Of a DNA stretch of 64,000 nt, positions 13,991 through 61,816 are shown piece by piece; position 1 is the stretch's first letter, and each line of letters begins with the position of its first letter. The notes under the pieces are model-generated. The model was given only the letters and a program-made list of their open reading frames with translations. It made no database searches and was not told where the DNA came from. The stretch lies in contig CP058998.1 in assembly GCA_013426015.1 (NCBI GenBank), positions 724,071-788,070 of the forward strand, read 5' to 3'. This stretch comes from Candidatus Fermentimicrarchaeum limneticum. GTDB taxonomy: Archaea > Micrarchaeota > Micrarchaeia > Burarchaeales > Fermentimicrarchaeaceae. The translations under genes and the position numbers were made by a program.

Positions 13991-15454
13991 TCACTCGATT
14001 TTGACATTCATCTTTTTCAGAATGTTCTCCATGTTTCCCTCGTTGTCGCCGGTGGATATGTCGCAGAGCAGCGCCATGTTCTTCACCAGTGCGCATGACG
14101 GGCCTTCTGGGGATTCGTTCGGACACAGCTTTCCCCAGTGTGTCCCATGCAGGTCCCTTGCCTTGAAGTGCGGGTGCCTCCTGCTGAGGGGGGAGATTAT
14201 CCTCCTCAGATGCGAGACGGTGGAAAGGTAGTTCGTCCTGTCAAGCAGCTGCGAGACACCTGTCTGGCCCGCAATCCAGTTGCCCGTTGCCATGGAATAC
14301 CTGATCCTCTCAGTCAAGGCATCTGGCCTGACCAACGTCTGAATCACAAGCTTCCTTCCCCTTGCAGAAGCCCTCTCAACCTGATAGGCAATATCCTTAA
14401 TCAGGAATTGGAATGCATACCTGAACAGCTCTTCCATCAGATTCCCCGCGAGCTTTATCCTCTTGTTGGCATAATGGTCCTTGTCATCTGAAACTGTCTT
14501 GTCATACGCAACGTCTATCGCCTTCTCAGTCATCTTGCAGAGGTAATACGCCTTTGCAAGCCTCAGGTTGGGATCAACTCCTATGTGGGGGAGTAGGTAG
14601 TTGTCCAGGAGTATTTCCGCTCTCTTCAACTGGTATACCTTAGCCTGGCCAACAGCTGCCTTCTTGCCAATTGCCTCCAGCGCATTCTGCGTGTTGGTCG
14701 TCTGGTCGATCTCCATGTTGAGGAGCAGGTCATTCTGCACTTCCAGTTCACTGGCGAATGAATTTAGTATTGTCTGGTTGGGATGCAGGCCAAGCGCCCT
14801 CAGGACAGTAATGAGGTTCAGATCCTTGGGAGCAGCCGGGAACACCACTCTCAGCTCGCCATTCGTGGTTCTCTCGACAACACACCTTGCCCTGAAACCG
14901 AAGCGCGTTGAGAACACTTTTGAAGTGACAAGCGCTCCGTCCTTCTCCTTTGATACCATTATCCTGTTGGGAGCAAGGTCCTCTATGCTTACTAGGACCC
15001 TCTCACTTCCGTTTATCACGAAGTAACCGCCGGGGTCATTCGGGTCCTCTCCTGCCTCAATCAGCTCATCATCTGTCATGTTATCCAGATGGCACAGTTT
15101 TGATTTCAACATTACCGGCAGCTCGCCTATGAATACTTCCTGTGGGTATCTCCTCTCCACCCCGCCGATTATCTGTATGAATTCAAGGAAGACCGGTGCG
15201 GCGTACGTAAGGTTCCTCAGCCTCGCCTCTGCAGGGAGTATCTGCCTCCTGGAACCGTCAGCTTCAACTATTGCGGGCTTGTCCAGCCTCACCGCACCGA
15301 ATTTCAGCTTGTAGTTCTCGACATTCGGCTCTATTGCACCTATGCTGTTTATTATGTTCTGAATTCCGGATTCAACGAACTTGTTATACGAGTCCAGGTG
15401 CTGCAGGACTAGTTTATTATCCCTGAAATACTCGTCTACCAAGTCCCATTTCAT
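13991..15454 (-). CDS. rpoB2: DNA-directed RNA polymerase subunit B'' (N-terminal half of split RpoB)
   Basis: 487 aa, RpoB N-terminal domains; immediately upstream of rpoB'. Confidence 0.93.
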   Translation of the reverse strand: MKWDLVDEYFRDNKLVLQHLDSYNKFVESGIQNIINSIGAIEPNVENYKLKFGAVRLDKPAIVEADGSRRQILPAEARLRNLTYAAPVFLEFIQIIGGVERRYPQEVFIGELPVMLKSKLCHLDNMTDDELIEAGEDPNDPGGYFVINGSERVLVSIEDLAPNRIMVSKEKDGALVTSKVFSTRFGFRARCVVERTTNGELRVVFPAAPKDLNLITVLRALGLHPNQTILNSFASELEVQNDLLLNMEIDQTTNTQNALEAIGKKAAVGQAKVYQLKRAEILLDNYLLPHIGVDPNLRLAKAYYLCKMTEKAIDVAYDKTVSDDKDHYANKRIKLAGNLMEELFRYAFQFLIKDIAYQVERASARGRKLVIQTLVRPDALTERIRYSMATGNWIAGQTGVSQLLDRTNYLSTVSHLRRIISPLSRRHPHFKARDLHGTHWGKLCPNESPEGPSCALVKNMALLCDISTGDNEGNMENILKKMNVKIE

Positions 15455-15470
15455 ATTATCCCTTCAAAAA

Positions 15471-15707
15471 CTACTTCACAACTAGGCGGTAGTAAGTGTT
15501 CTCCCTTGTGGGATCCTTCCTAGTTATCTTTATTATGTCACCCACTTTCGCATCAAGCAGCTTCACCTGCGGGTCTGTAATTTTTATCTTCGGAAGCTTG
15601 TTTTCGTCCACTCCGAGAGATGAGAGCAGTTCCTCACGTCTGGATTTTGCCAGAACGTCGTGCTTCGGAACAAGAAAATGAGATAGACGAAAATCGGCAA
15701 GACCCAA
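15471..15707 (-). CDS. rpoH: DNA-directed RNA polymerase subunit H
   Basis: 78 aa, ...HFLVPKH... Rpb5-like; first gene of rpoH-B-A cluster; non-ATG start in ORF track. Confidence 0.85.
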   Translation of the reverse strand: MGLADFRLSHFLVPKHDVLAKSRREELLSSLGVDENKLPKIKITDPQVKLLDAKVGDIIKITRKDPTRENTYYRLVVK

Positions 15708-16044
15708 TCTACCACCTAACCAGAGCAGAGTTAACCTAGTATTTAGGTCGCCAAGCTTTTTAAAGTTATCGTTAGAAAAGCTACGCTAACAGCACTCTAC
15801 GGAAAATGAACACCTTTTCTACTCAAGCTTCAACCTTTTGTTTTGGAGTTTAGTTGCTCCTTGTATGTGACATGCCCACTTTCGTAGGCTTCCTGCTTCA
15901 TTGACGCTGCCTCTGCAGTATCTCTCTCCGTTTCGGAATTGCAGGCGTTACTTCCCGAGTGCCCCTCGGTAGTGAGTGTGATTTGCTCGAGGATGTATTT
16001 AAAGATAACTACGATAGATGACGAGTGTTATTTTTTATAGCTGA

Positions 16045-16401
16045 GTGTCCACAATGAATGCGATGGAGAAAGAGATTAAGAAAGAGGATGCTGTCAATAC
16101 AAAAACCAACCGCTACTCATTTAAGGACGAGAGGTACTTCTACTATCTTGTAAAGAATAGGTTTCATGAGGAGGAGCTGGAAGCTTGGATGGAGATAGGG
16201 AAGGAGATTAAGGAGAAGGGAAGCATAAGCAGGGTTGACGCCGAATTGATATTTCTTGAAAAGGTTAAGGATGACCCTGAAACTCTGAAGAGGAACTTCC
16301 CGAAAAGAATGAAGTATCTGGCAGAGAATAATGCTTTAGAGGAAAAGCCTTCTTGGGAGATGATCCCGAAGAAGAAGCTGATGAAGCTCAGGCTGGACTG
16401 A
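16045..16401 (+). CDS. Hypothetical small charged protein
   Basis: 118-aa ORF (GTG at 16045, ATG at 16054), Lys/Glu-rich, no recognisable motif. Confidence 0.4.
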   Translation: MSTMNAMEKEIKKEDAVNTKTNRYSFKDERYFYYLVKNRFHEEELEAWMEIGKEIKEKGSISRVDAELIFLEKVKDDPETLKRNFPKRMKYLAENNALEEKPSWEMIPKKKLMKLRLD

Positions 16402-16409
16402 TTTTAAAA

Positions 16410-16527
16410 CGCCGGGGGCGGGATTCGAACCCACGAGGACCTTTTGGGCCCAACAGCTTAGCAGGCTGCCGCCATTTAGTGCCGTACTCCTTTTTTAGAA
16501 GTTAGGGAACCACTAGGCGACCCCGGC
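16410..16527 (-). tRNA. tRNA-Ser (anticodon GCU) with ~32-nt intron inside the D-loop region
   Basis: Hand-fold: acceptor GCCGGGG/CCCCGGC+G73, anticodon arm GCAGC-CTGCTAA-GCTGT, long variable arm (GGGCC/GGTCC), T-arm GTGGG-TTCGAAT-CCCGC; 118 nt. Confidence 0.7.
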
Positions 16528-16553
16528 AGGTTGCAATATTATTTGTGCGTTGT

Positions 16554-16566
16554 ATTTAAATAAAAT
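16554..16566 (-). promoter_or_regulatory. TATA-box-like element upstream of tRNA-Ser(GCU)
   Basis: TTTATTTAAATA ~27-35 bp upstream of tRNA 5' end. Confidence 0.35.
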
Positions 16567-16676
16567 GATGTGCATAAATTTAGTGGTGGAGAATGGAAGT
16601 CACTGTAAAGGAAGCAGAAGAATTTAAAGTGTCCAAAGCAGTGATAGACCGAAACTAGCCACTATTATACTATAGT

Positions 16677-16980
16677 GCGGTGAGCTTCACCGGAATTGAT
16701 GGGGGCCCTCTCGCCCGGTTGTTCAGACATGGGCTGGACTTTGTGGCTTGCTAGCATGGACAATTCCACCCAGAGAGCGGATGCTCCCGTGATTTGTGTT
16801 TAGGGTTGCTCCTTCCGGCCTGGCCCGGTTCCCACGACCTTCCATCCAGCAAGGCAAAGCTTCAACGCTTGCGCCTGAGCCGAAGTGAGATGGCTCGAAC
16901 CTCTTCCAGCTTTTCGGTCTCACCGTGAAGGGGGTTTGTGATTACAGGAGACCCCTAACCTCCCGACCTATCTCACCGCA
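16677..16980 (-). ncRNA. Signal recognition particle RNA (7S/SRP RNA)
   Basis: Minus-strand CAGGCCGGAAGGAGCAACCCUAA resembles the conserved SRP RNA helix-8 motif; 5' GCGGUGAG pairs with 3' CUCACCGC; ~300 nt; no ORF. Confidence 0.6.
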
Positions 16981-17001
16981 GTTAGTATTATTCCTCGGAA
17001 G

Positions 17002-17010
17002 TTTAAATAG
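17002..17010 (-). promoter_or_regulatory. TATA-box-like element upstream of SRP RNA
   Basis: CTATTTAAAC ~25 bp upstream of inferred SRP RNA 5' end. Confidence 0.35.
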
Positions 17011-17070
17011 CTATTCGAAAGAAAAATAAGTCTCAAGAACGACGGCAGAAGTTCAAAAATAGGGAAAGGC

Positions 17071-17079
17071 TTTTAAATA
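17071..17079 (+). promoter_or_regulatory. TATA-box-like element upstream of the L3 ribosomal protein operon
   Basis: TTTTAAATA ~80 bp upstream of rpl3 ATG. Confidence 0.3.
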
Positions 17080-17157
17080 TCTCCTGCATAAGATTATTCC
17101 ACTCTTTTCTATGACTGAAGTCTGGGGTTTCCCGGCCCCCGTTCTAGAGGTCTTATT

Positions 17158-18147
17158 ATGGGAAAAGTGATTAAGCCAAGAAGCGGGTCTCGCGCGTTCA
17201 GACCGAGGAAAAGGGCGAGCAGGCAAAACGCTCGCATCACTAGCTGGCCGGAGTTTGAGGAGACAAAGCTTCTGGGTTTTGCAGGCTTTAAGGCAGGCAT
17301 GACGCACATCATCATGGTTGACGATTACGAGGGTTCACCGACAAAGGGTCACGAGGTTTCTGTGCCTGTGACTGTGGTTGAGACCCCTTCTCTTCTTGTT
17401 CTTGGTCTGAGGGCTTATTCTTCTGATGTTTACGGCCTGAAGTCTTTTTCTGATGTCTACGCGAACAACATCGACAAAAAAATTGCGGAGAGAATAAACC
17501 TCAAGAAGAATAATTTTGATGAAGTGATGAAGAAGGTTGAGGGAACTATTGATGCAATAAAGGACGTGAGGGTTCTGGCGCTTACTTCTCCTGAGAGGAC
17601 TGGTTTTGGAAGGAAGAATCCTGATGTGGTTGAGATTGCGGTCGGTGGAAAAACTCCAAAAGAGAAGTGGGAGTTCTGCAAGAGCATTCTCGGCAAGGAA
17701 GTCAAAGTGAGTGAAGTTTTCAGCGATGGCGAGTATGTTGATGCAATAAGCGTGACAAAGGGAAAAGGATGGCAGGGGGCAGTGAAGAGATTCGGAGTTC
17801 ACCTGCAGAGAAGGAAGGCAACAGGGAGGAGGAGGCACGTCGGCACGCTAGGCCCGTGGCATCCTGCTAGGGTGATGTACACCACCCCGATGGCGGGGCA
17901 GATGGGCTACCACAAGAGGACCGAGCTCAACAAGAGGATATTGAAAATCGGCGGGAAGGACGAGGCAAACCCAAAGGGGGGCTTCCTGAACTATGGAGTT
18001 GTGATGAACGACTGCGTACTCATAAAGGGTTCTGTCGGAGGCCCTTGCAAGAGGATGATAAAGCTGAGGAAGAGTATAAGAAAGAGCGTGAAGCCGGCAA
18101 AGCTGGAGATAAAATACATCTCGAAGAATTCAAAACAGGGTGCTTGA
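17158..18147 (+). CDS. rpl3: 50S ribosomal protein L3
   Basis: FAGFKAGMTHI... uL3 signature. Confidence 0.95.
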   Translation: MGKVIKPRSGSRAFRPRKRASRQNARITSWPEFEETKLLGFAGFKAGMTHIIMVDDYEGSPTKGHEVSVPVTVVETPSLLVLGLRAYSSDVYGLKSFSDVYANNIDKKIAERINLKKNNFDEVMKKVEGTIDAIKDVRVLALTSPERTGFGRKNPDVVEIAVGGKTPKEKWEFCKSILGKEVKVSEVFSDGEYVDAISVTKGKGWQGAVKRFGVHLQRRKATGRRRHVGTLGPWHPARVMYTTPMAGQMGYHKRTELNKRILKIGGKDEANPKGGFLNYGVVMNDCVLIKGSVGGPCKRMIKLRKSIRKSVKPAKLEIKYISKNSKQGA

Positions 18148-32867: not shown

Positions 32868-32967
32868 GCCGGGGTGACGGAATCTGGTCAACGTGTACGC
32901 CTGGAATATCGTCCCGGCAAGCGTATGGCCTTTACGGGCCTTATGGGTTCAAATCCCATCCCCGGCG
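32868..32967 (+). tRNA. tRNA-Ser (anticodon GGA) with 13-nt intron at the canonical 37/38 position
   Basis: Hand-fold: acceptor GCCGGGG/CCCCGGC+G73, anticodon stem TACGC/GCGTA enclosing CTGGAA+intron+A, long variable arm, T-arm ATGGG-TTCAAAT-CCCAT; 100 nt. Confidence 0.75.
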
Positions 32968-35191: not shown

Positions 35192-35297
35192 GCGGGGGTG
35201 GCAGAGTCAGGTCAAATGCGCAGGACTGAGGCTCCTGTGCCTTTAGTGGCTGCGTGGGTTCAAACCGAAAGGTTGCCCAAAAATCCCATCCCCCGCA
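35192..35297 (+). tRNA. tRNA-Leu (anticodon GAG) with ~19-nt intron inside the T-loop
   Basis: Hand-fold: acceptor GCGGGGG/CCCCCGC+A73, anticodon arm CAGGA-CTGAGGC-TCCTG, long variable arm, T-stem GTGGG...CCCAT with TTCAAA[insert]AT loop; 106 nt. Confidence 0.7.
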
Positions 35298-36927: not shown

Positions 36928-37536
36928 ATGGGTGAACTTTTGATTCAGCAGGAAAAGTATTTGGAAGCTGGCATACATATCGGTACGAAGATAAAGACGC
37001 CCGACATGAACCAGTTCATATACAAAGCAAGGCAGGACAGGCTGTATGTGCTTGATTTGAAGAAAGTTGATGAGAGGATAAGAGTTGCTGCAAAATTCAT
37101 CCCTCACTACAAGCCCGAGGAAATGCTGATTGTTGCCTCAAGATTGTATGCGAGCAGCTCCGCCAAGAAGTTCTGCGAAGCGGTGGGATGCAGGGTTGTT
37201 GAAGGCAGGTTTATTCCAGGAATGCTGACAAACCCCGCAAGAGGGGATTACTGGGAACCGAAGCTGCTGTTCATATGCGACCCGAAGAATGAGAGGCAGG
37301 CAATAAAGGAAGCAAATTCGACAGGCATACCTGTGATTGCACTGTGCGACACGGACAACTCCACGAAATTCGTGGATTGGATAATCCCGTGCAACAACAA
37401 AGGCAGGAAGTCGCTTGCATTAATTTTCTATCTTCTTGCAAGGGAAATCAAGAAGCTTAAGGGAGATGAGGAGTTCAAGCTAAAGCCGGAGGACTTTGAA
37501 GGAATGAGAGACGAGGAGGAAGAGCCCTCAGCTTGA
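36928..37536 (+). CDS. rps2: 30S ribosomal protein S2
   Basis: uS2; start ATG 36928 ([19 protein letters not shown]...) just after the tRNA. Confidence 0.92.
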
Positions 37537-38781
37537 TTCCCTTATGCAGTTGTTCTTGACAAACGGGTCAGTTATGCTCTGGCATACTGTTGAGTTCTTG
37601 CTGTTTATTGCAAGCTGCTTGAAACATTCATCCTCCCAGTTCTGATGGATGATGGTCGCGCATGAGGAGAACGTGTAATTCTGGTTGTATATTATAGACG
37701 AGTAGCACGTGTTCATCGTGTAGGTGTTCTCTATTTTCGAGCAGAAGGACGGGTTGCTAGCGCTTTTTGCAATATTTAGATGGCACGAATCCTTCTTCAT
37801 AGGTTCGGATATCCTGTTGCATAGCGAGATGTTGCCCGTGACATTTGCAACGCCGTAATAGCAGTTATCCTTGTCCGTTATGCACTCGTAGCAGATTATC
37901 CTGGAGCATATGTCCGCATTCCTGCTTTTCACAGCTATGTTTGTGTAGCACTTGTCCTGGTAGAGGTGGGTGCTTATGTTCGAGCATAGCGAGTAGTTCG
38001 TGCTGTCGCTTGCAAAAACCTCAATGCACGAATCTATCTGCAGGTAATCCGGAAGTTCGTTGCAGAGAGAGTAATTTCCGGTGAGCTTCGTGAGGCACAG
38101 GTATTTCGTGTATAGATTGGAAATGCTGCTGCAGAGCGAGGAATTGCTGTTGAGATATGCAAAGTAGCGGTAGCAGTCGCCCCTCACCCCTGCTCCCGCA
38201 GGCAATGCGCATATGGAATAGTCATTCTTGTTCTTTGCAAATTCAACATAACACATGTCGGTAAGGGACTGGTTTTGGATTTCCGCACATATCGACTCAT
38301 TGTTTCTTGCCTTTGCCATGCAGAGATGGAAGTCGTAACCGTCAGTCATTTCCTCGCAGAGCACGGTATCGTCACCCAAGTCCAGGCGGCACTGCTTTCT
38401 CAGAATTGCATTCTCAATTTTTTTGCATGTGACAACTCCCACAACCGGTGCCAAGGTATGGTAGCAGTCGTCCCTCGTCTCCATGCTGAGTATTCTTCCG
38501 CAGAGTGTCGAGTCATTCAGATTTATTGCAAACCTGAGGTTGCAGGCATCCCTGAGAGAGTCTGAGAAGATGAACGAGCATGCGGTCAGGTTGTTCTTGG
38601 AGATTGCATCGTTGTAGTAGCATCTGTCTCCCTCTGCGCGGTCGGTTATTTCAGCGCACTGCAATTCCACAGGCGGCGGGGTTACTGTACCGTTATTTTT
38701 CGGTCCTTCAGGAAGCTGATATGAGACGCATCCAAAGAGCAATAAGAAAAATACCGTGAACAAGGCTATTTTGACGTTCAT
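37528..38781 (-). CDS. Cys-rich tandem-repeat lipoprotein (predicted secreted, N-glycosylated surface protein)
   Basis: Signal peptide plus lipobox-like [18 protein letters not shown]; ~15 repeats of ~26 aa with pattern C-x2-I-x5-7-[RD]-x-C-[YF]; ~30 Cys; many N-x-S/T sequons. Confidence 0.6.
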
Positions 38782-38886
38782 GAATAGATTTAAGCTGCAT
38801 CTATTTATTAACATTTCTTTAAGGTCAGCTTACCCTCTTGTCTTCATCTGGCTTTCGCCATCAGGAATACCTCGTATCATCACTAA

Positions 38887-38979
38887 TAGCCCCGGTCGGA
38901 TTCGAACCGACGTGAGCGGGTCCAAAGCCCGCTATCTTACCAGGTTTCACCAACCTCTTGGCCACTAGATGACGGGGCT
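38887..38979 (-). tRNA. tRNA-Gln (anticodon UUG) with ~19-nt intron in the D-arm
   Basis: Hand-fold: acceptor AGCCCCG/CGGGGCT+A73, anticodon arm GCGGG-CTTTGGA-CCCGC, T-arm GTCGG-TTCGAAT-CCGAC; D-stem ATCT/AGAT encloses 29 nt (loop + insert); 93 nt. Confidence 0.7.
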
Positions 38980-42232: not shown

Positions 42233-44743
42233 CTATTTTATTACAAAAACAGTTGCAGTCTTCTCATCCTCATCTGGCAGAGCATCTGAGTAAATCTCTC
42301 CCTTAAAAGTATGAATTTTTAAAAGCTCAACATTTCCTTTTTCGAACTTTTCTTCTGCGTATGGAGTTGCATCACTATAGGTGGTTCCCAGAATGACTTT
42401 CTTGAAGCCAGCCTTCTCTGCTAAATCCTTGACAAAACCGATCGAGGCTTCGTATATCTCATTCGTATTCTTGTAAGAGCTTGTTATGTTTATGGAATCT
42501 ATTATCAGAGTGGATTCACCCCCGATCTTGCCTGCGAAGAGCCATGCCTGCCCGATTCTCTGTTCTTTTCCTTCTTTTGTTATGGATATCTCGGCTATTT
42601 GAGTCGCAGCATCCATCATGTAGATAGGTAGAGTCCACCTGTTACCTCCATTAAAAGCAACACAGCAACCCGAATCGTTCCCGTTTGTCAAGGCAGTCAA
42701 CGGGTTTTTATCACTCAATTTCACCGAGATTATAATCTCCCCTGCTTCGCCTTTCATCGGCTTCACAGGCATGCCGAGCAATCTTTCAATCTCCTGAACA
42801 TGGAATAGGGCAGTTCTAGCCTCGCCTTTAATCTCCTCTGAGTCTACTACCATCGAACCAGGCGTTCCTGTGGTCTTTAGATACTTCTCAAGCACCGACA
42901 CTGCTTCCTTTGACCATTTTTTATCATTTGACAGCATCATCTCAATTATTGCCTTTGCTCTCTCCTCTGGGGTTTTGTAGTCCCGTGCATCAAGAGAGGT
43001 CAGTTCCGCAAATACCTTTCCCGGCTTCTTGAAAACCTCCCCTTTCGGGTTGCTGAAAAGCTGCATCACCACATCCTGGAACGTATCATTGATGTGCTCC
43101 TCTCCTGCCTCCAGCTTCTCAATTCCTGTTAATGTTTTCTTGAAGACTACTTTGTCAATCCCCTTGTAGTAGACGTAGACATCGGTATTTATTCCAAGCT
43201 TGTTCATTTCTGTGAGTGCTTGCTTATTCTCTTCTAGTGAGTCGTAGTACTTTTGGAAGGTGTTTTCAAGCCCGTACTTTATGAGTATCCTTACTTCCTC
43301 GTTTTTTTCAATAAAATCTAAACCAGATATCATTTTGATAAGATATTCCTTCTGGTCTTGGGCTATTTTTTCAAATGGGAATTTCACATCTTCCGCTATT
43401 TTCTTAGCGCCTAGGTCAATAAGCTGTGCAGAGAAGTCCTGCAGCTTGAGCCGGGAGAGCTCTTCTTTTGAGAAATTGGGTATATAACTAATAAGACGGG
43501 GATTTTTCAACAGACTAGTCACAGCAGAACTTAAATCTTGCATTGTTAATCTTTTTCCCTCTGTTTGTGTTAACAGCGCACCTAACACCTTTTCTCTCTC
43601 TCCCCAAGATTCAATAAACCCCTCCTCTTTTAGTTTTTCGTTTAACAAGTCTTCTAATTTTTTAATTTCTGATATCCACCCACTCATTTCTTCTTTGGTT
43701 TTTATGATTCCCTCCATTGCTAGATTTACAAGATTCCCTCTAATTTCAAAATCATAAAAGATATCGCAGGCTACATCTGCCACCTTTGCCCTTTTTTCAA
43801 TCTCTGGCACCCAGTCTCTCAGTTCCTCAACGGTTTTTGCCACTCCTGTTTTTACTAGTGAATCCAAATACTTCGAGCCTATTTGCCGCGTGGATGAATT
43901 AGCAGAAATAAGTTTGAAGTCTAACTCATCGTATACGCGGTCTAATCTTTTTATATGGCGTACGTCGGATTCATATAATTTCACTAGTTTTTTAAGGTCT
44001 TCTGAGGATTTTACCATGTCTTTTTTTACCAATTCGGGTAGATGGTTGCGGCATACGTACTTACCCCATAAATCATTAAACTTGAAGTCTCTCAATAGGT
44101 CTGCTTTTGCTAGGTTTGGGAAAACAAAGGATATGGGCAACCCACCGAGCTCTCTTCCATGATATTCTGCGTCCCGTGTTAATTCATGTAGTTTGACTAT
44201 TGCGTGTAAGTCATTCGGGGATTTTATCACTCCCTTATCCAACATAAGTTGTAGACTGTCTCCCCACATGATATTGCTGATAGTGATTAGTTCTAAACCG
44301 CAGCACCCTAAGTCATTCGGGGATTTTATCACTTCTTTCTTTCCTAGTTTCGAAATAAATTCATCCAGATCTATCGGTCCAACTGAGATTCCTTGATGCT
44401 CGGAAAGATATTTATGCAATCCGATCAGCTTTTTTCCATACCTTTCCAAATCTTCCGTGTCTTTTATCAGACCACTCTCTCCAAGCAGTAGGAAACCTCT
44501 TTCGAAATTCATCCAGTAACGTCCAGGTTCTGATAACTCGTATAATTTATGCAGGGCTGTAATGTTTTCAGGTGTGACCTTAAGGCGCATTCCTTTCAGT
44601 ATTCTCTCGTGAATCTCTCTTTCATAGGAGGGGATTTTCGCCAGCTCCCTCTTCATTCTCTGCTCAGGGATTTCAGGCTTTATGCGCTCTGTTTCTACTG
44701 GCTGCTCGGCAGGCGCTTCAATGGGTTTCAGCTTCTCTGGCAT
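42233..44743 (-). CDS. Large hypothetical protein (836 aa) with internal tandem repeat
   Basis: No recognisable catalytic motif; 105-bp direct DNA repeat (~44207 and ~44312) encodes duplicated (V)IKSPNDL segment; no signal peptide. Confidence 0.5.
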   Translation of the reverse strand: MPEKLKPIEAPAEQPVETERIKPEIPEQRMKRELAKIPSYEREIHERILKGMRLKVTPENITALHKLYELSEPGRYWMNFERGFLLLGESGLIKDTEDLERYGKKLIGLHKYLSEHQGISVGPIDLDEFISKLGKKEVIKSPNDLGCCGLELITISNIMWGDSLQLMLDKGVIKSPNDLHAIVKLHELTRDAEYHGRELGGLPISFVFPNLAKADLLRDFKFNDLWGKYVCRNHLPELVKKDMVKSSEDLKKLVKLYESDVRHIKRLDRVYDELDFKLISANSSTRQIGSKYLDSLVKTGVAKTVEELRDWVPEIEKRAKVADVACDIFYDFEIRGNLVNLAMEGIIKTKEEMSGWISEIKKLEDLLNEKLKEEGFIESWGEREKVLGALLTQTEGKRLTMQDLSSAVTSLLKNPRLISYIPNFSKEELSRLKLQDFSAQLIDLGAKKIAEDVKFPFEKIAQDQKEYLIKMISGLDFIEKNEEVRILIKYGLENTFQKYYDSLEENKQALTEMNKLGINTDVYVYYKGIDKVVFKKTLTGIEKLEAGEEHINDTFQDVVMQLFSNPKGEVFKKPGKVFAELTSLDARDYKTPEERAKAIIEMMLSNDKKWSKEAVSVLEKYLKTTGTPGSMVVDSEEIKGEARTALFHVQEIERLLGMPVKPMKGEAGEIIISVKLSDKNPLTALTNGNDSGCCVAFNGGNRWTLPIYMMDAATQIAEISITKEGKEQRIGQAWLFAGKIGGESTLIIDSINITSSYKNTNEIYEASIGFVKDLAEKAGFKKVILGTTYSDATPYAEEKFEKGNVELLKIHTFKGEIYSDALPDEDEKTATVFVIK

Positions 44744-44877: not shown

Positions 44878-45477
44878 CTACTGGCAGCAGTGGAAAGGTT
44901 TGCTGGTGTAGGATGGATCGGCAACTCTATTTGCACCACACTCGTCTGGCAGGTTTTGGACTACAATTGGCATTATTTGACCGCCAGGACTAAGCCACTC
45001 GTTGGACCACTCGCCTCCGGTTGGGATGGTGATTGCTCCAGCATGGCATGCGCCATAAAGTTGCGGTATGTCACACAAAGTCTTGTTTTCACTCTGGCAT
45101 TGCGCCATAGAATCATCTATTGACTTTGCACTATTTGAAGAGGTGTCTATGCAGAAAGCTCCTGCCCTTGTCATATCAGTAGGACATGGAAGTTGGGCTA
45201 TAGTTACTGCTGGACCAGGATTTCCTTGGGATCCTTGCGGTCCGGCTGGCCCAGTATCTCCTTCTGGACCTTGGGGTCCCACCGAACCTGTATCGCCTTT
45301 AGATCCCTGAGGTCCTACATCACCTCTTGAACCTTGGGGTCCTATTGGACCAGTATCGCCCTTCGGACCCTGCTGTCCGGTATCACCCTTCGCTCCTTGC
45401 GGTCCTGCGGGACCTACCTGTGTGCAACCGGCAAAAAACAGCGCTACAATCAATAAGACAATTAAGAGCCTTCTCAT
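44878..45477 (-). CDS. Collagen-like (Gly-X-Y repeat) lipoprotein with Cys-rich C-terminal domain
   Basis: Signal peptide plus lipobox-like [18 protein letters not shown]; ~25 uninterrupted G-X-Y triplets; C-terminal ~110 aa with 8 Cys. Confidence 0.65.
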
Positions 45478-45555
45478 TACCTTCACCCCCAATTATTTAG
45501 TTAGGGCTTTTTAATATATGCATTAGTCAAGATAATCCTTTATAAGATAAATGTA

Positions 45556-45722
45556 TGGGGCCAGAGGGATTTGAACCCTCATTAACAGGTGTCTCATAAA
45601 GCATCTCATCCTTTGTCAATGCTCCAATTCTAAATCATCCCCGAAGGTCATTCCACCTGTAACAATGCTCCTCTACAAAAGGAACTGGAGCCTGTTGTTC
45701 TGCCAAGTTATACCATGGCCCC
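45556..45722 (-). tRNA. tRNA-Trp (anticodon CCA) with ~90-nt intron at or near the canonical position
   Basis: Hand-fold: acceptor GGGGCCA/TGGCCCC+A73, anticodon stem ACAGG/CCTGT with loop CTCCAG..., T-arm GAGGG-TTCAAAT-CCCTC; 167 nt precursor. Confidence 0.7.
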
Positions 45723-50929: not shown

Positions 50930-53900
50930 GTGAGTTTTGGAAAGGCTACAGCTCCTTTTAGCAAGTGCAGAGAAGGCTGTTAGTAGTGGACGGGCTCACG
51001 GATCGCTTACGCTTTCCATCTACACCCCCACTCTATCAACAGGATCTGCTATCCTGGCCTTGAACTGCCTCGTTTTGAGAATGGTTTCGACCTTAGATGC
51101 TTTCAGGTCTTATCCTTTGGCGCGTGGCTGCCCGGCGATGCTTGACACAACCGGTATACTAGAGGCGCCGGTTCCCCGTTCCTCTCGTACTCGGGGAGCC
51201 ATACTCTCAAGCAGTCAACACTCCTAGGAGATACTACCGAACTGTCTCGCGACGTTCTGAACCCAGCTCGTGTAAGTCTTTAATGGATGAACAACCCAAC
51301 CCTTGGTGGCTCCTGCACCACCAGGATGACTTAGGCCGACAGCGATGTACCAAACCGCAAGGTCGATATGTACTCTCGCCTGCGACGAGCCTGTTACCCC
51401 CGGGGTAGCTTGTCTGTCAGCTTGGACCCTCAACAAAAGGGATTCCAAGGTTCGTTAAGCCCCTCTTTCGAGTCTGAATCCCACGCTTTTAAGGATTCAG
51501 TCAGCCATGCATTTGTCTTTAACCCTTACCAGCGGATTTCTGACCCGCTTAAGCATAGCATTGGGCGCCCTTGTTTCCTTATCGAGGGCGTACCGCCCCA
51601 GCCAAACTATCCATCTGCCGATGTTCCCTTACAGGTGAGGAACACAGCAACTGAAGAGCAGTGTTTCACTTTCGCATTCATACCCCCCGCAAGGGGCATT
51701 TCGACGCTCCTGCTTACGCTGTGCAACAACCACCGTATTCCAACGACAGACTATAGTAAAGCTCCACGGGGTCTTCGTTTCCCCCTAGAAGTCCTCGGCA
51801 TCTTCACCGAGTAGTGAGTTCACCAGGTCCCAGGTAGGGACAGCGGGACGCTCGTTATGCCATTCATGCAAGCCACCAATTAAGCGGCGAGGTATTACGC
51901 TACCTTAAGAGGGTCAGAGTTACCCCCGCTCTTTGCTGGTGCTTTGCTCCATTGAACTGGAGTTTGACATACCAGTAGTGAGCAGGCATCGCCCCCTATA
52001 CTAAGCCTTTCGACTTTGCAGGGAGCTGTGTTTTTGATATACAGTCGACGTCCCCTTGTCACTGCGACCTGCGATTGCAGCTTGCGCCACAATTGCAGGC
52101 ATGGCTTCTTCCTAAGTTACGCCACTGGATTGCCGAGTTCCCTTACCTGAGTTTTCCTGACACGCCTTGGCTTTCTCTGCCAGCAGCACCTGTACTAGTT
52201 CTAGGTACGATCTCGCGGAATCGCTGCCAGCTTCCTTTTCACGGGCTCAAGGAATCAACGGAACCACCTTGCGGCGGCCTTCCCAGAGTTAGACTGCTTC
52301 TCCTCATAACGAGTCTCTGCAGTCCTGCAGAGGTTAGATGAGCTCTCGCTCACTCCACCTATCCCCAAGCGTCAGAAGTGGCCTTGTGTCACCACGTCTA
52401 CCCACGAGGCACTGGGATCTTAACCAGTTTCCCGTTTGCTCTCGAGTAATTAGCTGAGAGCTTAGGATCGGCTTACTCTTAACTGACGAACATTGTTAAG
52501 AAAACCGTGTGCTATCCGGCGTCCAGGATTCTCACCTGGATTCGCTGTTACTAACACCAAGATATTTATTTCTGACAGGTCCATTGGAGCTCACGCCCCA
52601 ACTTCTACCCAGCCAGAACACCCCCCTACCAGATGATGCTTGTGGCATCCTCCGGGGTCTCGGCACCTGACTTAGCCCCGGTAATCTTCGGAGCCTGCAC
52701 TCTCGACTGGTCCGCTGTTACGCGTTGTTTAAAGGATGGCTGCTTCTGAGCCTACCTTCCAGCTGTTTAAGAATGGGGACTCCTTTGTGATTAGCACTCA
52801 GTCAGGATTTAGGGGCCTTAACCTCGGTCTCGGTCGTTCCCGTCCCGGCACACCAGCTTACCCGGTGCGCCCGACTCCCATCTTCTATGGTGATTATGAA
52901 TTCGGAGTTTGAGAAGACAGTGGAGCCTTTCGGCTCCGTTCTGCCTGATCAGTGCTCTACCTCATAATCAACCTCTGATGGGGCTATCCTACAGGATACT
53001 TCGGGGGGGACCCGCTATCGCCAAGTTCGATAGGACTATCACCCCTACACGCAAGTCACCCGAGCAGATATACTAGCACCGGTTGCGGGCCTCCACCAAT
53101 CGGAGGATCGGCTTCGCCCTGCTCGCGTGTAGATCACATTGGCTTCGGGTCTGCAGGAAGTGATTCATGGCACTTTCGTACCACCTGCCTCACACCTTGC
53201 GGTGCTGCGCAGTCTCGCTTTCGCTCAGCCTTTCGGCTCACCACTTCCAGCAACTCCTTGGCTCTTGCTTCAAGAAGAACGATACAACCCTGCTCAATCT
53301 CCCGTCGCTTTATATATTTCTACATATCGCTTCTGGGAGACCGCATTCCTTTCGGGCTGTACCCTCTGTAGCCACTCAGTTTCAGGTTCTTTTAACTCCC
53401 CTTTCGGGGTGCTTTTCAGCGTTCGCTCGCGCTACTTTACGCTATCGGTCTCAGGTTATATTTAGAGTTGGGAGTTGTTGCTCCCGTGTTCGCGCCCAAT
53501 ACTCGATGGACGCTACTCTGCACATCCCCTCACCCTCCGCTTTTCGCATACGAGGCTGTCACTCTCTTTGGCAGCGCTTTCCAGTGCACTTCAGCTAGAC
53601 GGAAGGAGAATGGAATGAATCACATCTCCTGCAAGTTGCCCTGCAGGATTCGAATTGCCTCTGTGGGGCGTTCAATCGCCTTTACTGACCCCATACCAGT
53701 TGGTTTCTTTTCCTGGGGGTACTAAGATGTTTCAATTCCCCCCGTGCTCCTTCGCCTCTTTTGGAGGTGAATTATTCGGCAATCCCAGGTTCAATGGCTG
53801 CCTGCGCCTACCCTGGGCTTATCGCAGCTTGCTACGGCCTTCATCGCTACCTGAGCCAAGCCATCCCCTGAATGGCATACTCACTGCACTCGTTTTTGCC
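50930..53900 (-). rRNA. 23S ribosomal RNA (boundaries approximate, +/-50 nt)
   Basis: Minus strand contains AGUACGAGAGGAAC sarcin-ricin loop, CUGAAAGCAUCUAAG near 3' end, and 5'-region GGAUGGCUUGGC...GAUGAAGGCCGUAGCAAGCUGCGAUAAGCC. Confidence 0.9.
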
Positions 53901-53991
53901 AGGAACTATAGCTTCTATTCCACTCACGGCCTCATCAATATCAGCCACTTCATTCAGGAAATTTTCCTGAATTGCATATGACGTACGGAAA

Positions 53992-54086
53992 TGGACTCGG
54001 CGAGATGTTCAGCAGTTTGGAAACTACTTTTGAACTCGCGGCCTCCTCCTCGCAAAGGAGGCGCTCTACCACTGAGCTACGAGCCC
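53992..54086 (-). tRNA. tRNA-Ala (anticodon UGC) in the 16S-23S spacer, with ~23-nt intron in the T-loop
   Basis: Hand-fold: acceptor GGGCUCG/CGAGUCC+A73, D-arm GCUC-AGUGGUA-GAGC, anticodon arm CCUCC-UUUGCGA-GGAGG, T-stem GCGAG...CUCGC with TTCAAA[insert]T loop; 95 nt. Confidence 0.75.
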
Positions 54087-54595
54087 ATCGGCTTCAAGAA
54101 CTATTAGGAGTGAGCGTATTGATGTTCGCTTACCTTGCACTCACACTTTTTCATTCTCGTATCATGGAACGAAAATTTAAGGAGGTGATCTATCCGCAGG
54201 TTCCCCTACGGATACCTTGTTACGACTTAGCCCCTCTCATGACGAATTAGCTCGACGAGATCCGAAGGGATCCCGCCTCACTAAAACTTCATTTGAGTGA
54301 CTTGACGGGCGGTGTGTGCAAGGAGCGGGGACGTATTCACCGCTCGATGTTGACAAGCGATTACTAGGGATTCCAGCTTCATGAGGGCGAGTTTCAGCCC
54401 TCAATCCGAACCTAGGCCGAGTTTGGGGATTAGCTCCTCCTCTCGGAGTGGCAACCCATTGTCTCGACCATTGTATGCCACGTGTAGCCCGGGAGATTCA
54501 GGGCATACTGACCTACCGTTGCCGTCTCCTTCCTCCTGTTTAACACAGGCAGTCCCAACAGAGTGCTTCATCTCCGGAGAGATGAATAGCAACTG

Positions 54596-55105
54596 TCAGC
54601 GACGGTCTCGCTCGTTTCCGGACCGCATGAGTGCTTTTTTTACTTCGGAGTGCTTCATAGAATCCTTGACAAAAACAATGAATTCCCTTGGAGTCATTAT
54701 TGCCAGCCTTCCTTTGATGAATCTGGTTCTGAAGCCCAGAAGCTCAAGTAGCATCTGGTCCTTGTACGAAGCACGCGCCAGGTAAGGCGTGTCCCCCTCT
54801 ACCCCGCCGCAGGAATCGAACATCCCTGCAACGTATGAGGAGGAGTATCTGTTCCTTTTCCTGAAAACATCTATTTGATTCTTCTCAGCTCCCTCAAAGA
54901 ATGTCCTGTACGCTGAATGATAGAAGTACACGTCCCTGTCAGTCATCTGTATCTTCTCTGGAGGAATCTTCAGCGTCTTCATTATTTCTTTCAGGAAAAT
55001 CTCCCTGATCTCTCCGCTGCCTCGTATTCCGATTCCACTGGGAACCCTCCTTCCTTTCCATAAACCTATTAGGTATGCCAGTTCAGGCGTCATTTTAATT
55101 CTCAT
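54596..55105 (-). CDS. LAGLIDADG-like homing endonuclease ORF encoded in the 16S rRNA intron (motif 1 degenerate)
   Basis: Two LAGLIDADG-type motifs (LAYLIGLWKG lacking acidic residues; YVAGMFDSCGGV); ORF 3' end runs ~22 nt into the downstream exon. Confidence 0.6.
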   Translation of the reverse strand: MRIKMTPELAYLIGLWKGRRVPSGIGIRGSGEIREIFLKEIMKTLKIPPEKIQMTDRDVYFYHSAYRTFFEGAEKNQIDVFRKRNRYSSSYVAGMFDSCGGVEGDTPYLARASYKDQMLLELLGFRTRFIKGRLAIMTPREFIVFVKDSMKHSEVKKALMRSGNERDRR

Positions 55106-55147
55106 TCTCTCACTCCAAAACGGATGCACTCATGCGATTTACCGGAC
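54618..55147 (-). mobile_element. 16S rRNA intron (archaeal bulge-helix-bulge type) carrying an endonuclease-like ORF
   Basis: Insertion between GGUUAAGUCCGG and AACGAGCGAGACC; flanks GCAUGAGUGC / GCACUCAUGC can pair; GUCCGG duplicated at both junctions. Confidence 0.8.
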
Positions 55148-55287
55148 TTAACCGGACACTTCACAGCACGAGCTGACGATGGCCATGCACCACCTCTCGG
55201 CTCGTCAGGTAAGATCTTCAGTCTGACCTTCATACTGCCGTCGCTCCCGGTGATATTCCCGGCGTTGAATCCAATTAAACCGCAGCA

Positions 55288-55330
<43 letters not shown>

Positions 55331-56415
55331 ACCTTGCGGCCGTACTCCCCAGGCGGCAGACTTAACACTTACGCTACGGCACTGCCACAGCACTAAGCTA
55401 TGGCAACACCACAGTCTGCATAATTTACTGCTAGGGCTACTCGGGTATCTAATCCGATTCGTTCTCCTAGCCTTCGTCCCTCACTGTCGGACGCGTTTTG
55501 GCCAAGCGCCTTCGCCACTGGGAGTCCTCACAGGATTAACGGATTTTACCCCTACCCCGTGAGTACTCTTGGCCTCCCCCGCTCCCAAGCCCGTCAGTAT
55601 TCTCTGCACTCCTTCAAGTTGAGCTTGAAGATTTCACAGAGAACTTAGCGGGCCAGCTACGGACTCTTTAAGCCCAATATTCGTGGATACCACTCGAGCT
55701 GCCGGTGTTACCGCGGCGGCTGTCACCGGTCTTGCCCAGCTCTTATTCCGCAAGCTCCTTAAGCTTACGAAAAGATGCTCGCGTGGAGCATCACTCAGAA
55801 TCCCCTCGTCACGCTTTCGCGCATTGCGAAGGTTTCGCGCCTGCTGCATCCCGTAGGACTGGAGCCCTTGTCTCAGTGCTCCTCTGGGGGCGCCAACTCC
55901 CATTGCCCCCACCGATTATCGGCTTGGTGGGCCGTTACCCCACCAACTACCTAATCGGAAGCAGTCTCATCCTAAGGCAGACATGGCTGCATTTCGCCAC
56001 GCTGTTTGGGCTATGAAGCTTTCCAGCATCCATAACCTATGTGGTATTAGCCTCAGTTTCCCGAGGTTATCCCCCTCCTTAGGGCAGATTGACCACTCGC
56101 TACTCAGCCGTATGCCACCCCTCCTTGCAGAAGGGGTAGACTTGCATGGCTTAGTCGAATTCTGATAGCAGTACCCTCCAGCAGGATCAACTGGAATTAG
56201 AGCACACTATTCTTCCGCAAGTTCGGCGAAAAGACACCACTATCGCTCACTTCTCCTGTTCTTGAAGCCAGAGTCAAATCCAAACAAGCTTGGATTTCCA
56301 TCGATATTATGCGCTATAGAGGAAGGGTATATCTCACAGCACGAAATAGAATTCGCGCTCCATTTACGCCGTAATCTACAGCGTCCGCACGGCGAAAGAA
56401 GATTATGCACTCTCT

Positions 56416-59817: not shown

Positions 59818-60351
59818 TCAGATAAGCTTCTTCTCATAGACATTCTCATAAACCGGTCCTTTGGGAGTCAGGGTGCTCTTCTTGAGAAGAATCCTGTCAA
59901 CCGTGCAGTCTCCGAGTTCAGTCTCGGCGTTCGTCTCAAGGAATTCAATCAGCTTTGTTTTGTCTTTCAGGAATTTCACCCTCGCCAGCGTTATATGGGG
60001 CGAGAAATCTTCTTTCTTGAAACCAAGCCTTGCAAGCTCCCCTCCAAGTTGGTCGTGGATACTCTTCAGCTCAGGTGCGTCAACACCGACCCAGATAACT
60101 CGTATGTAATTCCTGTTGGGGAATGCCCCGGCACAGTTGCAGCTCATCTCAAACTTTCTGCAGTTCACCTTTTCCATTGCCTGGGTTACCTTGCCCTTCA
60201 TGGTGTCGTCTATCTCTCCTAGGAAGTGCATGGTTAGATGCAGGTTCTCCTTCTCAACAAGCTTCACTCCGTCAATGGAGAGCTGCTTCTGCAGTTCTGC
60301 CATCTTCTCCCTTAGCCGTTCGTCCACTTCAACTGCAATGAAAGTTCGCAT
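59818..60351 (-). CDS. thpR: RNA 2',3'-cyclic phosphodiesterase (2H phosphoesterase, ThpR/LigT family)
   Basis: Two H-x-T-x motifs (HLTMHFLG, PHITLARV); 177 aa from ATG 60351. Confidence 0.8.
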   Translation of the reverse strand: MRTFIAVEVDERLREKMAELQKQLSIDGVKLVEKENLHLTMHFLGEIDDTMKGKVTQAMEKVNCRKFEMSCNCAGAFPNRNYIRVIWVGVDAPELKSIHDQLGGELARLGFKKEDFSPHITLARVKFLKDKTKLIEFLETNAETELGDCTVDRILLKKSTLTPKGPVYENVYEKKLI

Positions 60352-60363
60352 ATGGTAATTTAA

Positions 60364-60939
60364 ATGAAAGCCAGATATAAGAGTTTTATGATTGTGATTG
60401 GCGTTGCAGGGCTGAGAGCAGCTGGCAAGAGCATTGCCAACGAAGTTGCAAAGGAGTTTGGGGTTAATTCGGTAGAAATGAGAAGCATAGTAGTTGACAT
60501 GATGAAGGAGAAGAGGATCGCGGTAACCAACAGGAGCCTTAGGGAATTCGCAGACGAATTGAGGAAGAAGGAAGGTTATGATGTTGTTGCGAGAAAGGTT
60601 ATTGAGAAGATCAAGAAGATGAATGAGAAGGCGCTTGTAGTGAACGGAATAAGAGGTTATGAGGAACTGAAGCGTTTCAGGGAGGCTTTCGGCGACAAGT
60701 TTATCCTCATAGGAGTTTTCGCTCCTCAGAAAATGAGATTTGAGAGGGTGATTAAGAGGAATCTGCCGGAGGATCCGAAGAGCTGGGAGGAGTTCGTGTG
60801 GGCTGACGAGAAGGAGCTGGGGTGGGGCACAGCGGACTCCTTCGCGTTCTCTGATCACATAATTGTGAATGCGGAGACGAAGGAGGAGATGAGGGAAGAG
60901 GTGCAAAAACTGCTGAAGAAGCTGCTTGCAAAAGGATAG
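60364..60939 (+). CDS. P-loop nucleotide kinase-like protein (archaeal dephospho-CoA kinase/UPF0200-like)
   Basis: Walker A GLRAAGKS; 191 aa; family assignment tentative. Confidence 0.55.
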   Translation: MKARYKSFMIVIGVAGLRAAGKSIANEVAKEFGVNSVEMRSIVVDMMKEKRIAVTNRSLREFADELRKKEGYDVVARKVIEKIKKMNEKALVVNGIRGYEELKRFREAFGDKFILIGVFAPQKMRFERVIKRNLPEDPKSWEEFVWADEKELGWGTADSFAFSDHIIVNAETKEEMREEVQKLLKKLLAKG

Positions 60940-60976
60940 ATTTTTATTGAACTTCTGAGATATCTGTGTGGTTAGA

Positions 60977-61816
60977 ATGAGAAAATTGTTTTGGGTGCTC
61001 ATCTTTGCGGCAGTGGCAGTTAACGCCACATACGTGAACATAAAGGAGCCCTTCCCATCAAGCGGTTTGGTTGAGAACAGCAGCATCTACATGGGCAAGG
61101 CGGCTCCTGGGCAGACGGTTTATATAGTTGCCGAGAGAGCAACGATAGACGCGGCTGGCGGGAGTATGATCTACATGGGGTGGGACAAGCTGGCGATTGA
61201 GGATTTGCCGGAAGGCTGGACCGCGGAGGACAGCCCGTGGTATGAGACCCCCATGAAGGCTAAGATAAGGATATCCCCTGACGCGAAGAACGGTACGAGA
61301 TATTATTTCAAGGCCAAGGCTGTGGATGAGGGGAACCTCAACGGCCTGGGAAATCTGACGATAAACGTTTCCATTGACGTGAGCGATGATGTTTTCAAGA
61401 TAGATGTCAGCCCGCCGGAAGTTGAAACGGGGGTTGGACAGCCGGCAATTTATTACATAGACATAGAGAACGAGGGGGCTGCAAGCGATACGTTCAGCAT
61501 CACCTCAAGAGGAGTGCCGGCATGGAAATTCAAGAAGGACGTATTCGTGCCGCATGCGATTGACGTCACTCTGCAGGCAAAGAAGACTGTTCCCTATGAG
61601 GTCGTGAGCAACGAGCAGAATGAGATGGACATATACATAAACGTTACATCCCTCTCAAGCGACCAGATAAGCAGGGAGGTTAGGGTGACGCTTAAAGCGA
61701 GACCCTCCCTGATTTCGGATTACAGGGCAACCGGCCATGGTTTGCTGGTGTTCCCGCTCATAGAGAGCCCTATATACTCGCTCATAGCGTTCTTCTCAAA
61801 TTCCTTCTTTAGGTAG
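60977..61816 (+). CDS. Secreted/cell-surface protein of unknown function with C-terminal membrane anchor
   Basis: N-terminal signal peptide (MRKLFWVLIFAAVAVNA), several N-x-S/T sequons, C-terminal hydrophobic segment. Confidence 0.5.
   Translation: MRKLFWVLIFAAVAVNATYVNIKEPFPSSGLVENSSIYMGKAAPGQTVYIVAERATIDAAGGSMIYMGWDKLAIEDLPEGWTAEDSPWYETPMKAKIRISPDAKNGTRYYFKAKAVDEGNLNGLGNLTINVSIDVSDDVFKIDVSPPEVETGVGQPAIYYIDIENEGAASDTFSITSRGVPAWKFKKDVFVPHAIDVTLQAKKTVPYEVVSNEQNEMDIYINVTSLSSDQISREVRVTLKARPSLISDYRATGHGLLVFPLIESPIYSLIAFFSNSFFR

Follow-up and report, generated by a model that had tools for sequence, protein, structure and literature searches.

Predicted protein-spliced T-loop introns in the tRNA-Leu(GAG) and tRNA-Ala(UGC) genes of a Micrarchaeota archaeon

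Results

Genomic setting of two interrupted tRNA genes

The window (the whole 64,000-nucleotide stretch of DNA analysed) carries a minus-strand rRNA operon (23S rRNA, 50962-53892; 16S rRNA, 54180-56197) and a long cluster of ribosomal-protein and RNA-polymerase genes. Two tRNA genes with inserts in their T-loops are found here: tRNA-Leu(GAG) lies directly 3′ of rpoD, in the conserved gene order S13-S4-S11-rpoD-tRNALeu-...-S9, and tRNA-Ala(UGC) is housed in the 16S-23S spacer. Their predicted exons and introns are listed below.

35192-35297 (+): tRNA-Leu(GAG), with a T-loop intron
35192..35261 (+): tRNA-Leu(GAG) 5′ exon, positions 1-56, ending ...GCGTGGGTTC; from the BHB-aware scan, ARAGORN on the spliced sequence and the covariance model
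35262..35280 (+): tRNA-Leu intron, 19 nt, AAACCGAAAGGTTGCCCAA; placed at 56/57 by BHB geometry
35281..35297 (+): tRNA-Leu(GAG) 3′ exon, AAATCCCATCCCCCGCA; from in-silico splicing
54086-53992 (-): tRNA-Ala(UGC), with a T-loop intron
54029..54086 (-): tRNA-Ala(UGC) 5′ exon, positions 1-59; from the BHB scan and ARAGORN on the spliced sequence
54006..54028 (-): tRNA-Ala intron, 23 nt, AGTAGTTTCCAAACTGCTGAACA; at 59/60, strict hBHBh′ motif
53992..54005 (-): tRNA-Ala(UGC) 3′ exon, TCTCGCCGAGTCCA; from in-silico splicing

The closest homologue of the RpoD encoded in the window is found on a 2-kb JGI contig (95% identity), followed by others at 73-79%; identities are 69-95% within its own clade and 35-59% to most of the homologues listed. 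Nearly all homologues with a named source are from Micrarchaeota or Micrarchaeia.

Removal of the inserts restores canonical cloverleaves

ARAGORN called nothing in the unspliced tRNA-Leu gene and a mis-folded 83-nt tRNA in the unspliced tRNA-Ala gene, and the alignment of the Rfam generic tRNA model was limited to the 5′ two thirds of both genes, with the acceptor mis-paired. Because both methods fail or mis-fold here, ARAGORN at default settings and the generic Rfam model are unable to place the inserts; in their place we used in-silico splicing, a scan for BHB motifs and a covariance model specific to the lineage. Removal of 19 nt from the T-loop of tRNA-Leu gave a perfect 87-nt tRNA-Leu(GAG) in ARAGORN, and removal of 23 nt from that of tRNA-Ala gave a perfect 72-nt tRNA-Ala(UGC) with G3:U70 intact. 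The spliced T-loop reads TTCAAAT in both, within a canonical cloverleaf of standard loop sizes, bearing out the proposal of the initial annotation that a clean cloverleaf is obtained only without some 19-23 nt of the T-loop. The predicted exon-exon junctions after splicing are GGGUUCAAAUCCC for tRNA-Leu and GAGUUCAAAUCUC for tRNA-Ala.

The covariance model, built on 31 distinct uninterrupted Micrarchaeota tRNA-Leu(GAG) orthologues, matched tRNA-Leu at 35193-35295 (76.7 bits, E ~5e-17). All four stems were kept in the alignment, and the surplus bases fell within the T-loop and not in the variable arm, the alternative location against which the initial annotation had wished its proposal to be checked. 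The spliced tRNA-Leu differs from an uninterrupted orthologue (L023) at three D-arm positions only. As a control for chance, the combined BHB and ARAGORN pipeline was run on three dinucleotide-preserving shuffles of the window, where it returned 0, 0 and 1 calls. The T-loop inserts of tRNA-Leu and tRNA-Ala are confirmed as real and well above chance.

Splice-site geometry of the two introns

The 5′ strand of a BHB was defined as an outer helix, a 4-bp central helix, a 3-nt bulge and an inner helix, with a symmetric 3′ strand, and the cut was placed after bulge nucleotide 2 (marked ↓ below). This rule gave the correct mature sequence in seven cases in the window (tRNA-Ala, tRNA-Leu, tRNA-Gln, both tRNA-Ser, tRNA-Trp and 16S rRNA); as an internal check, it recovered the conserved 16S junction GTTAAGTCCGGTA↓ACGAGCG and, at 37/38, those of tRNA-Ser(GGA) and tRNA-Trp.

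The tRNA-Ala intron at 59/60 forms a strict hBHBh′ structure with central, inner and outer helices of 4, 7 and 5 bp. The T-stem (GCGAG/CTCGC) serves as the outer helix, and the central helix is formed by T54-A57 (TTCA) with TGAA at the 3′ end of the intron. A58 A59↓A and C A↓T60 form the bulges, and GTAGTT/AACTGC the inner helix. An alternative register at 58/59 (GTTC/GAAC, 25-nt intron) is also allowed by the BHB rule; it was rejected because the T-loop would be reduced to 5 nt.

For tRNA-Leu, removal of the insert at 56/57, 57/58, 58/59 or 59/60 gives TTCAAAT in every case, and the placement is ambiguous by sequence because of the A-run. The four candidate inserts are circular permutations of a single 19-mer. 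The sole placement accepted by the BHB scan was 56/57, with central, inner and outer helices of 4, 4 and 1 bp. Here G51-T54 (GGGT) pairs with GCCC at all four positions, with T55 C56↓A as the 5′ bulge and AACC-GAAA-GGTT as the inner hairpin, and the 3′ site AA↓A lies in the single-stranded run AAAAAU. The intron belongs to the relaxed class only, since the outer helix is 1 bp at 56/57 and 2/4 central pairs form at 59/60, where a BHB was therefore rejected. The relaxed HBh′ motif is present, with central helix GGGU/GCCC, bulge UC↓A, inner helix AACC/GGUU and an unclosed second splice site. In the minimum-free-energy fold GGGU is likewise paired with GCCC (-10.4 kcal/mol, vs. -8.3 kcal/mol for the form that contains the T-stem).

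Other interrupted RNA genes in the window

Both strands were searched with a BHB-aware scan, the check suggested by the initial annotation. It recovered the two T-loop introns together with three hidden tRNAs, Gln(UUG), Ser(GCU) and Ser(GGA), all absent from the ARAGORN and Rfam calls. Of the seven tRNA genes in the window, tRNA-Thr alone is uninterrupted; four of the other six have introns at non-canonical positions. ARAGORN and Rfam combined called four of the seven, one of these mis-folded. The further interrupted genes are as follows.

16410..16527 (-): tRNA-Ser(GCU), 33-nt intron at 16508..16476, D-loop, ~20/21
32868..32967 (+): tRNA-Ser(GGA), 13-nt intron at 32907..32919, canonical 37/38
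38887..38979 (-): tRNA-Gln(UUG), 20-nt intron at 38956..38937, D-arm, 22/23
45556..45722 (-): tRNA-Trp(CCA), 94-nt intron at 45684..45591, 37/38
54616..55139 (-): 16S rRNA BHB intron, 524 nt, interrupting the conserved GTTAAGTCCGG..AACGAGCG

In the tRNA-Gln intron, GCCA/TGGT, the bulges AG↓a and aa↓G and the inner helix GGTT/AACC make up an HBh′ motif; this intron shares the minimal HBh′ architecture of the tRNA-Leu intron, namely 1 nt, a 4-bp hairpin, a 4-nt central strand and 2 nt. The junction given for tRNA-Ser(GCU) is approximate, as registers 19/20 and 18/19 pass a loose BHB test too; the gene sits in an otherwise ORF-poor stretch (15454-17158). The tRNA-Ser(GGA) intron has a central helix (CTGG/CCGG) and a 7-bp outer helix and is devoid of an inner helix. 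This gene is located between cbf5/truB and the S13 gene, and the long GTG-start S13 ORF call that overlaps it (32874..) probably starts too early.

The tRNA-Trp intron, judged by eye, looks like a euryarchaeal box C/D guide RNA. Within it, UUGGAGC, followed by A and UUGA, can pair with positions 31-37, placing C34 five nucleotides from the D-like box, and ACAGGU, followed by GGA and AUGA, can pair with positions 38-43, with C39 at the fifth position; in Rfam the sole match in favour of such an assignment is to SNORD26, and is weak (E 0.5). An ORF of 204 aa (44878-45492, -) adjoins tRNA-Trp and contains collagen triple-helix (G-X-Y) repeats, a feature unusual in an archaeon; two large ORFs nearby (42233-44743, 836 aa; 37528-38814, 428 aa) are without a Pfam match.

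The 16S intron has a CCGG/CCGG central helix, bulges TA↓A and AA↓A, and a 13-bp inner helix. It contains an ORF of 177 aa with LAGLIDADG-like motifs (LAYLIGLWKG and YVAGMFDSCGG), for which there was no Pfam match at E<=0.001. An assignment of this insert as a group I intron was rejected, given its clear BHB and the lack of an Rfam match.

Conservation of the T-loop introns among relatives

Searching metagenome contigs by exact pattern with the tRNA-Ala 5′ body gave 11 loci, and the T-loop intron is present in all of them (11/11). The exons are identical across the 11 loci, while the introns are 20-27 nt long with variable interiors. The distal inner helix and the loop vary among these relatives (GTT/AAC, GCT/AGC, GC/GC, GT/AC), and a U-A pair of the central helix becomes U-G in one of them. 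Over nine distinct sequences, 97.8% of the cells in the tRNA-Ala BHB are paired, compared with 26-46% once the pairing partners are shifted out of register. Compensatory double changes are seen at one pair, and four pairs change to wobble only; covariation in this BHB is modest because the exons are invariant and double changes occur at one pair only.

The sequence immediately 3′ of tRNA-Ala (53940-53990, -; ATGCAATTCAGGAAAATTTCCTGAATGAAG) is kept in all of these relatives (L081-L091), and its hairpin shows compensatory changes among them. This conserved stretch probably contributes to the processing stem of the 23S rRNA.

For tRNA-Leu, we compared 80 syntenic rpoD loci, nearly all titled as Micrarchaeota MAGs. 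In 52 of the 80, the tRNA-Leu(GAG) that ARAGORN found after rpoD is uninterrupted and matches the pattern of the predicted spliced sequence, and about two thirds of the lineages have no intron in this gene. Many of the isotype calls that ARAGORN made in intron mode on orthologues with several introns were spurious, and these were disregarded. The six closest genomes (L001-L006) have the 19-20-nt intron in common, with loop variants GAAA, TTAA, GAGA and CATAA and one A-U to G-U change; two of them (L002 and L005) carry an extra 37/38 intron. Three other loci (L029, L038 and L080) have tRNA-Leu introns of 48-61 nt, whose interiors are long and unrelated. Their junctions (TTC↓G, TTC↓A and TTC↓T ... 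AA↓AAAT) fit 56/57 only, and all three retain the GGGT/GCCY central helix and the TC↓N bulge, with an inner helix that is different in sequence and still paired. T-loop introns also occur in tRNA-Leu at 58/59 (L014, L019 and L039; helix GTTC/GRAC) and at 59/60 (L021 and L024; helix TTCA/TGAA). In these eight loci the interrupted gene begins some 30-300 nt downstream of rpoD. The rpoD-linked tRNA-Leu(GAG) is hence interrupted at three adjacent T-loop positions across Micrarchaeota, each with a matching shifted central helix, and the T-loop is a recurrent intron target in this phylum. Elsewhere in this gene, a 37/38 intron alone is found in L044-L046, L058, L063, L064, L067 and L072, and D-loop introns in L057 and L038.

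At two further loci, L007 (~2358-2685) and L015 (2644-2812), a large insert is found at 37/38 of the rpoD-linked tRNA-Leu. The T-loop of both is 12 nt long (TTCAAACGAAAT, 5 extra nt), and no acceptor 3′ strand directly follows the T-stem. These genes may contain a further intron or may be split.

Position of the tRNA-Leu intron

From BHB geometry and the orthologues together, we place the tRNA-Leu intron at 56/57. The initial annotation had put both introns at about 59/60 and regarded them as occupying the same site in two unrelated tRNAs. For tRNA-Ala the position holds; for tRNA-Leu, ambiguous by sequence, BHB geometry points to 56/57, so that a strict motif at 59/60 in the one tRNA stands beside a relaxed motif at 56/57 in the other, and the claim of a shared site is not upheld. 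A tRNA-Leu intron at 59/60, with one T-loop site reused across tRNAs, nevertheless has some points to commend it: removal of CCGAAAGGTTGCCCAAAAA yields a mature tRNA identical to that from removal at 56/57, the orthologous tRNA-Leu of L021 and L024 is interrupted at 59/60, and the same site has been reported in ARMAN-2 (PMC3239211). We consider it unlikely all the same. With the T-stem formed, the central helix that it requires (UUCA with CAAA) has only 2/4 pairs, against 4/4 at 56/57, and the 5′ cut would land within the AACC/GGTT hairpin. The BHB scan accepted 56/57 alone, the GGGU-GCCC fold is favoured by free energy, and the junctions of L029, L038 and L080, which share the central helix of the tRNA-Leu intron, are compatible with 56/57 alone.

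Search for the splicing enzymes

The initial annotation had further deduced a splicing endonuclease with relaxed specificity from the position of the introns. This deduction is sound insofar as the relaxed HBh′ structures of tRNA-Leu, tRNA-Gln and tRNA-Ser(GCU) need a broad-specificity enzyme, but it does not follow from intron position as such. No EndA was detected in the window, either by phmmer with Methanocaldococcus jannaschii EndA against all six-frame ORFs or by Pfam on 28 ORFs, nor by tblastn in the 91 fetched loci, and no tRNA ligase gene was found in the window or the fetched loci.

The EndA of ARMAN-2 is a three-unit epsilon2 enzyme that cleaves relaxed BHBs (Fujishima et al. 2011, PMC3239211), and its structure (PDB 4fz2) and a loop lysine behind the broad specificity have been described (Hirata et al. 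2012, PMC3488258; PMC6379350). Using the recovered parts of the PDB 4fz2 sequence as the query, we retrieved 1406 proteins homologous to the epsilon2-type EndA. The 120 matches listed are ~368-406 aa long and cover 97-100% of the query length, and the source names among these 120 are mostly Micrarchaeota.

The window also encodes a 422-aa protein (59818-61086, -), the C-terminal half of which is a LigT/2H phosphoesterase (2′,5′-RNA-ligase-like) domain and the N-terminal ~250 aa of which have no Pfam match. It may have a role in RNA end healing, and is not the expected RtcB-type tRNA ligase.

Discussion

Proposed splicing of the two tRNAs

We interpret both inserts, with a probability of about 0.9, as archaeal protein-spliced (BHB) T-loop tRNA introns of a Micrarchaeota (DPANN) archaeon. 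This agrees with the view of the initial annotation that the inserts are tRNA introns in the T-loop and not coincidence: independent assemblies share them, and there the exons stay constant while the intron interiors vary. Excision and the order of events would proceed as follows. In the precursor, the intron would pair with nucleotides of the T-arm to form a BHB recognised by EndA, presumably a broad-specificity enzyme of the epsilon2 type, which would cut past the second nucleotide of each 3-nt bulge. The exons would then be joined by an RNA ligase, probably of the RtcB type, restoring the 7-nt T-loop UUCAAAU, and the intron would be circularised. The tRNA-Ala, within the rRNA spacer, would be co-transcribed and its strict 59/60 BHB processed by EndA. 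The tRNA-Leu precursor would present a minimal 19-nt intron with its 3′ site in an unclosed A-run, and its T-stem would be unable to form before splicing because G51-U54 are taken up by the central helix of the BHB.

Could the inserts instead be retained, the genes being either decaying pseudogenes or tRNAs with an expanded T-loop? That standard finders miss these genes would fit such a view, which we nonetheless regard as very improbable. The exons are 100% conserved in 11 (tRNA-Ala) and 6 (tRNA-Leu) independent assemblies while the intron interiors drift, identity elements such as G3:U70 are intact, and synteny is conserved both behind rpoD and within the rRNA spacer. In every case the intron keeps the BHB, and the predicted spliced pattern is found exactly in the 52 uninterrupted tRNA-Leu orthologues. 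Still less credible are assembly or chimera artefacts, given inserts of identical type in many independent metagenome assemblies, and self-splicing group I or II elements, which at 19 nt (Leu) and 23 nt (Ala) would be far below ribozyme size and lack a catalytic core; group I introns are known from rRNA genes of Micrarchaeota (PMC6125680), an observation with nothing specific to these inserts, and Rfam at the gathering threshold found no intron families in the window (rRNA and tRNA only).

Significance

As protein-spliced introns, the tRNA-Leu and tRNA-Ala inserts reveal no new mechanism, and no new biology follows from the enzyme that they would require, since the epsilon2 EndA is already characterised in Micrarchaeota. 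Their main value is for annotation: most tRNA genes of this lineage are missed by standard tRNA finders, and claims about codon tables or 'missing tRNAs' in DPANN MAGs therefore need BHB-aware searches. The window adds a second Micrarchaeota lineage that fits the reported association of a broad-specificity EndA with tRNA genes that are heavily interrupted. It would also yield one rRNA primary transcript containing both a 16S intron and a T-loop-interrupted tRNA-Ala, each presumably dependent on the same endonuclease.

The orthologues provide material for tracing the gain or sliding of T-loop introns across Micrarchaeota. The three adjacent positions in tRNA-Leu could conceivably reflect intron sliding or repeated targeted gain, which would make the T-loop a phylum-wide intron hot spot with traceable dynamics, a suggestion we offer tentatively. 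If it were true, gain in the T-loop might be selected, for example by destroying T-arm attachment sites of integrating elements, and the 19-20-nt HBh′ mini-introns of tRNA-Leu and tRNA-Gln could be the minimal unit of the process.

Comparison with known systems

Work on ARMAN-2 in 2011 had already shown that Micrarchaeota have T-loop introns as well as an enzyme capable of their removal, and the present case is real but ordinary. In ARMAN-2 (Candidatus Micrarchaeum acidiphilum), pre-tRNA-Cys(GCA) has a 59/60 intron with an hBH motif, pre-tRNA-Pro(GGG) has strict introns at 53/54 and 59/60, and 56% of the tRNA genes are interrupted (PMC3239211). The two systems share the phylum, the T-loop region, the 59/60 site (tRNA-Ala here), a mix of strict and relaxed BHBs, and a high proportion of interrupted tRNA genes (6/7 in this window). 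They differ in the tRNAs concerned, which here are Leu(GAG) and the rRNA-spacer Ala(UGC), in the 56/57 position and HBh′ motif of the tRNA-Leu intron, and in lineage, the present archaeon belonging to a different branch of Micrarchaeota as judged by RpoD identity.

To our knowledge, Crenarchaeota (Thermoproteales) and Nanoarchaeota have no tRNA-Ala in the rRNA spacer. Non-canonical tRNA introns of these groups were reportedly described by Marck and Grosjean in 2003 and by Sugahara et al. in 2008. The catalogued archaeal tRNA intron positions include 20/21, 22/23, 53/54, 56/57 and 59/60 (PMC4090602), and both this catalogue and the relaxed HBh′ and hBH motifs are shared between those groups and the introns described here (PMC4090602); in both, splicing obeys BHB rules and not position rules. 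The phylum differs, as probably does the endonuclease architecture, which is a heterotetrameric (alpha-beta)2 EndA in Crenarchaeota and Nanoarchaeota.

Compared with a canonical 37/38 intron, the tRNA-Ala intron at 59/60 is a structural copy moved to the T-arm. A 5-bp stem serves as its outer helix, loop nucleotides 1-4 form the central helix, and the cut falls between loop positions 6 and 7; the tRNA-Ser(GGA) and tRNA-Trp introns of the window obey the identical cutting rule. What distinguishes the tRNA-Ala intron is its location in the T-loop, because of which the T-loop/D-loop tertiary core would be unable to form before splicing.
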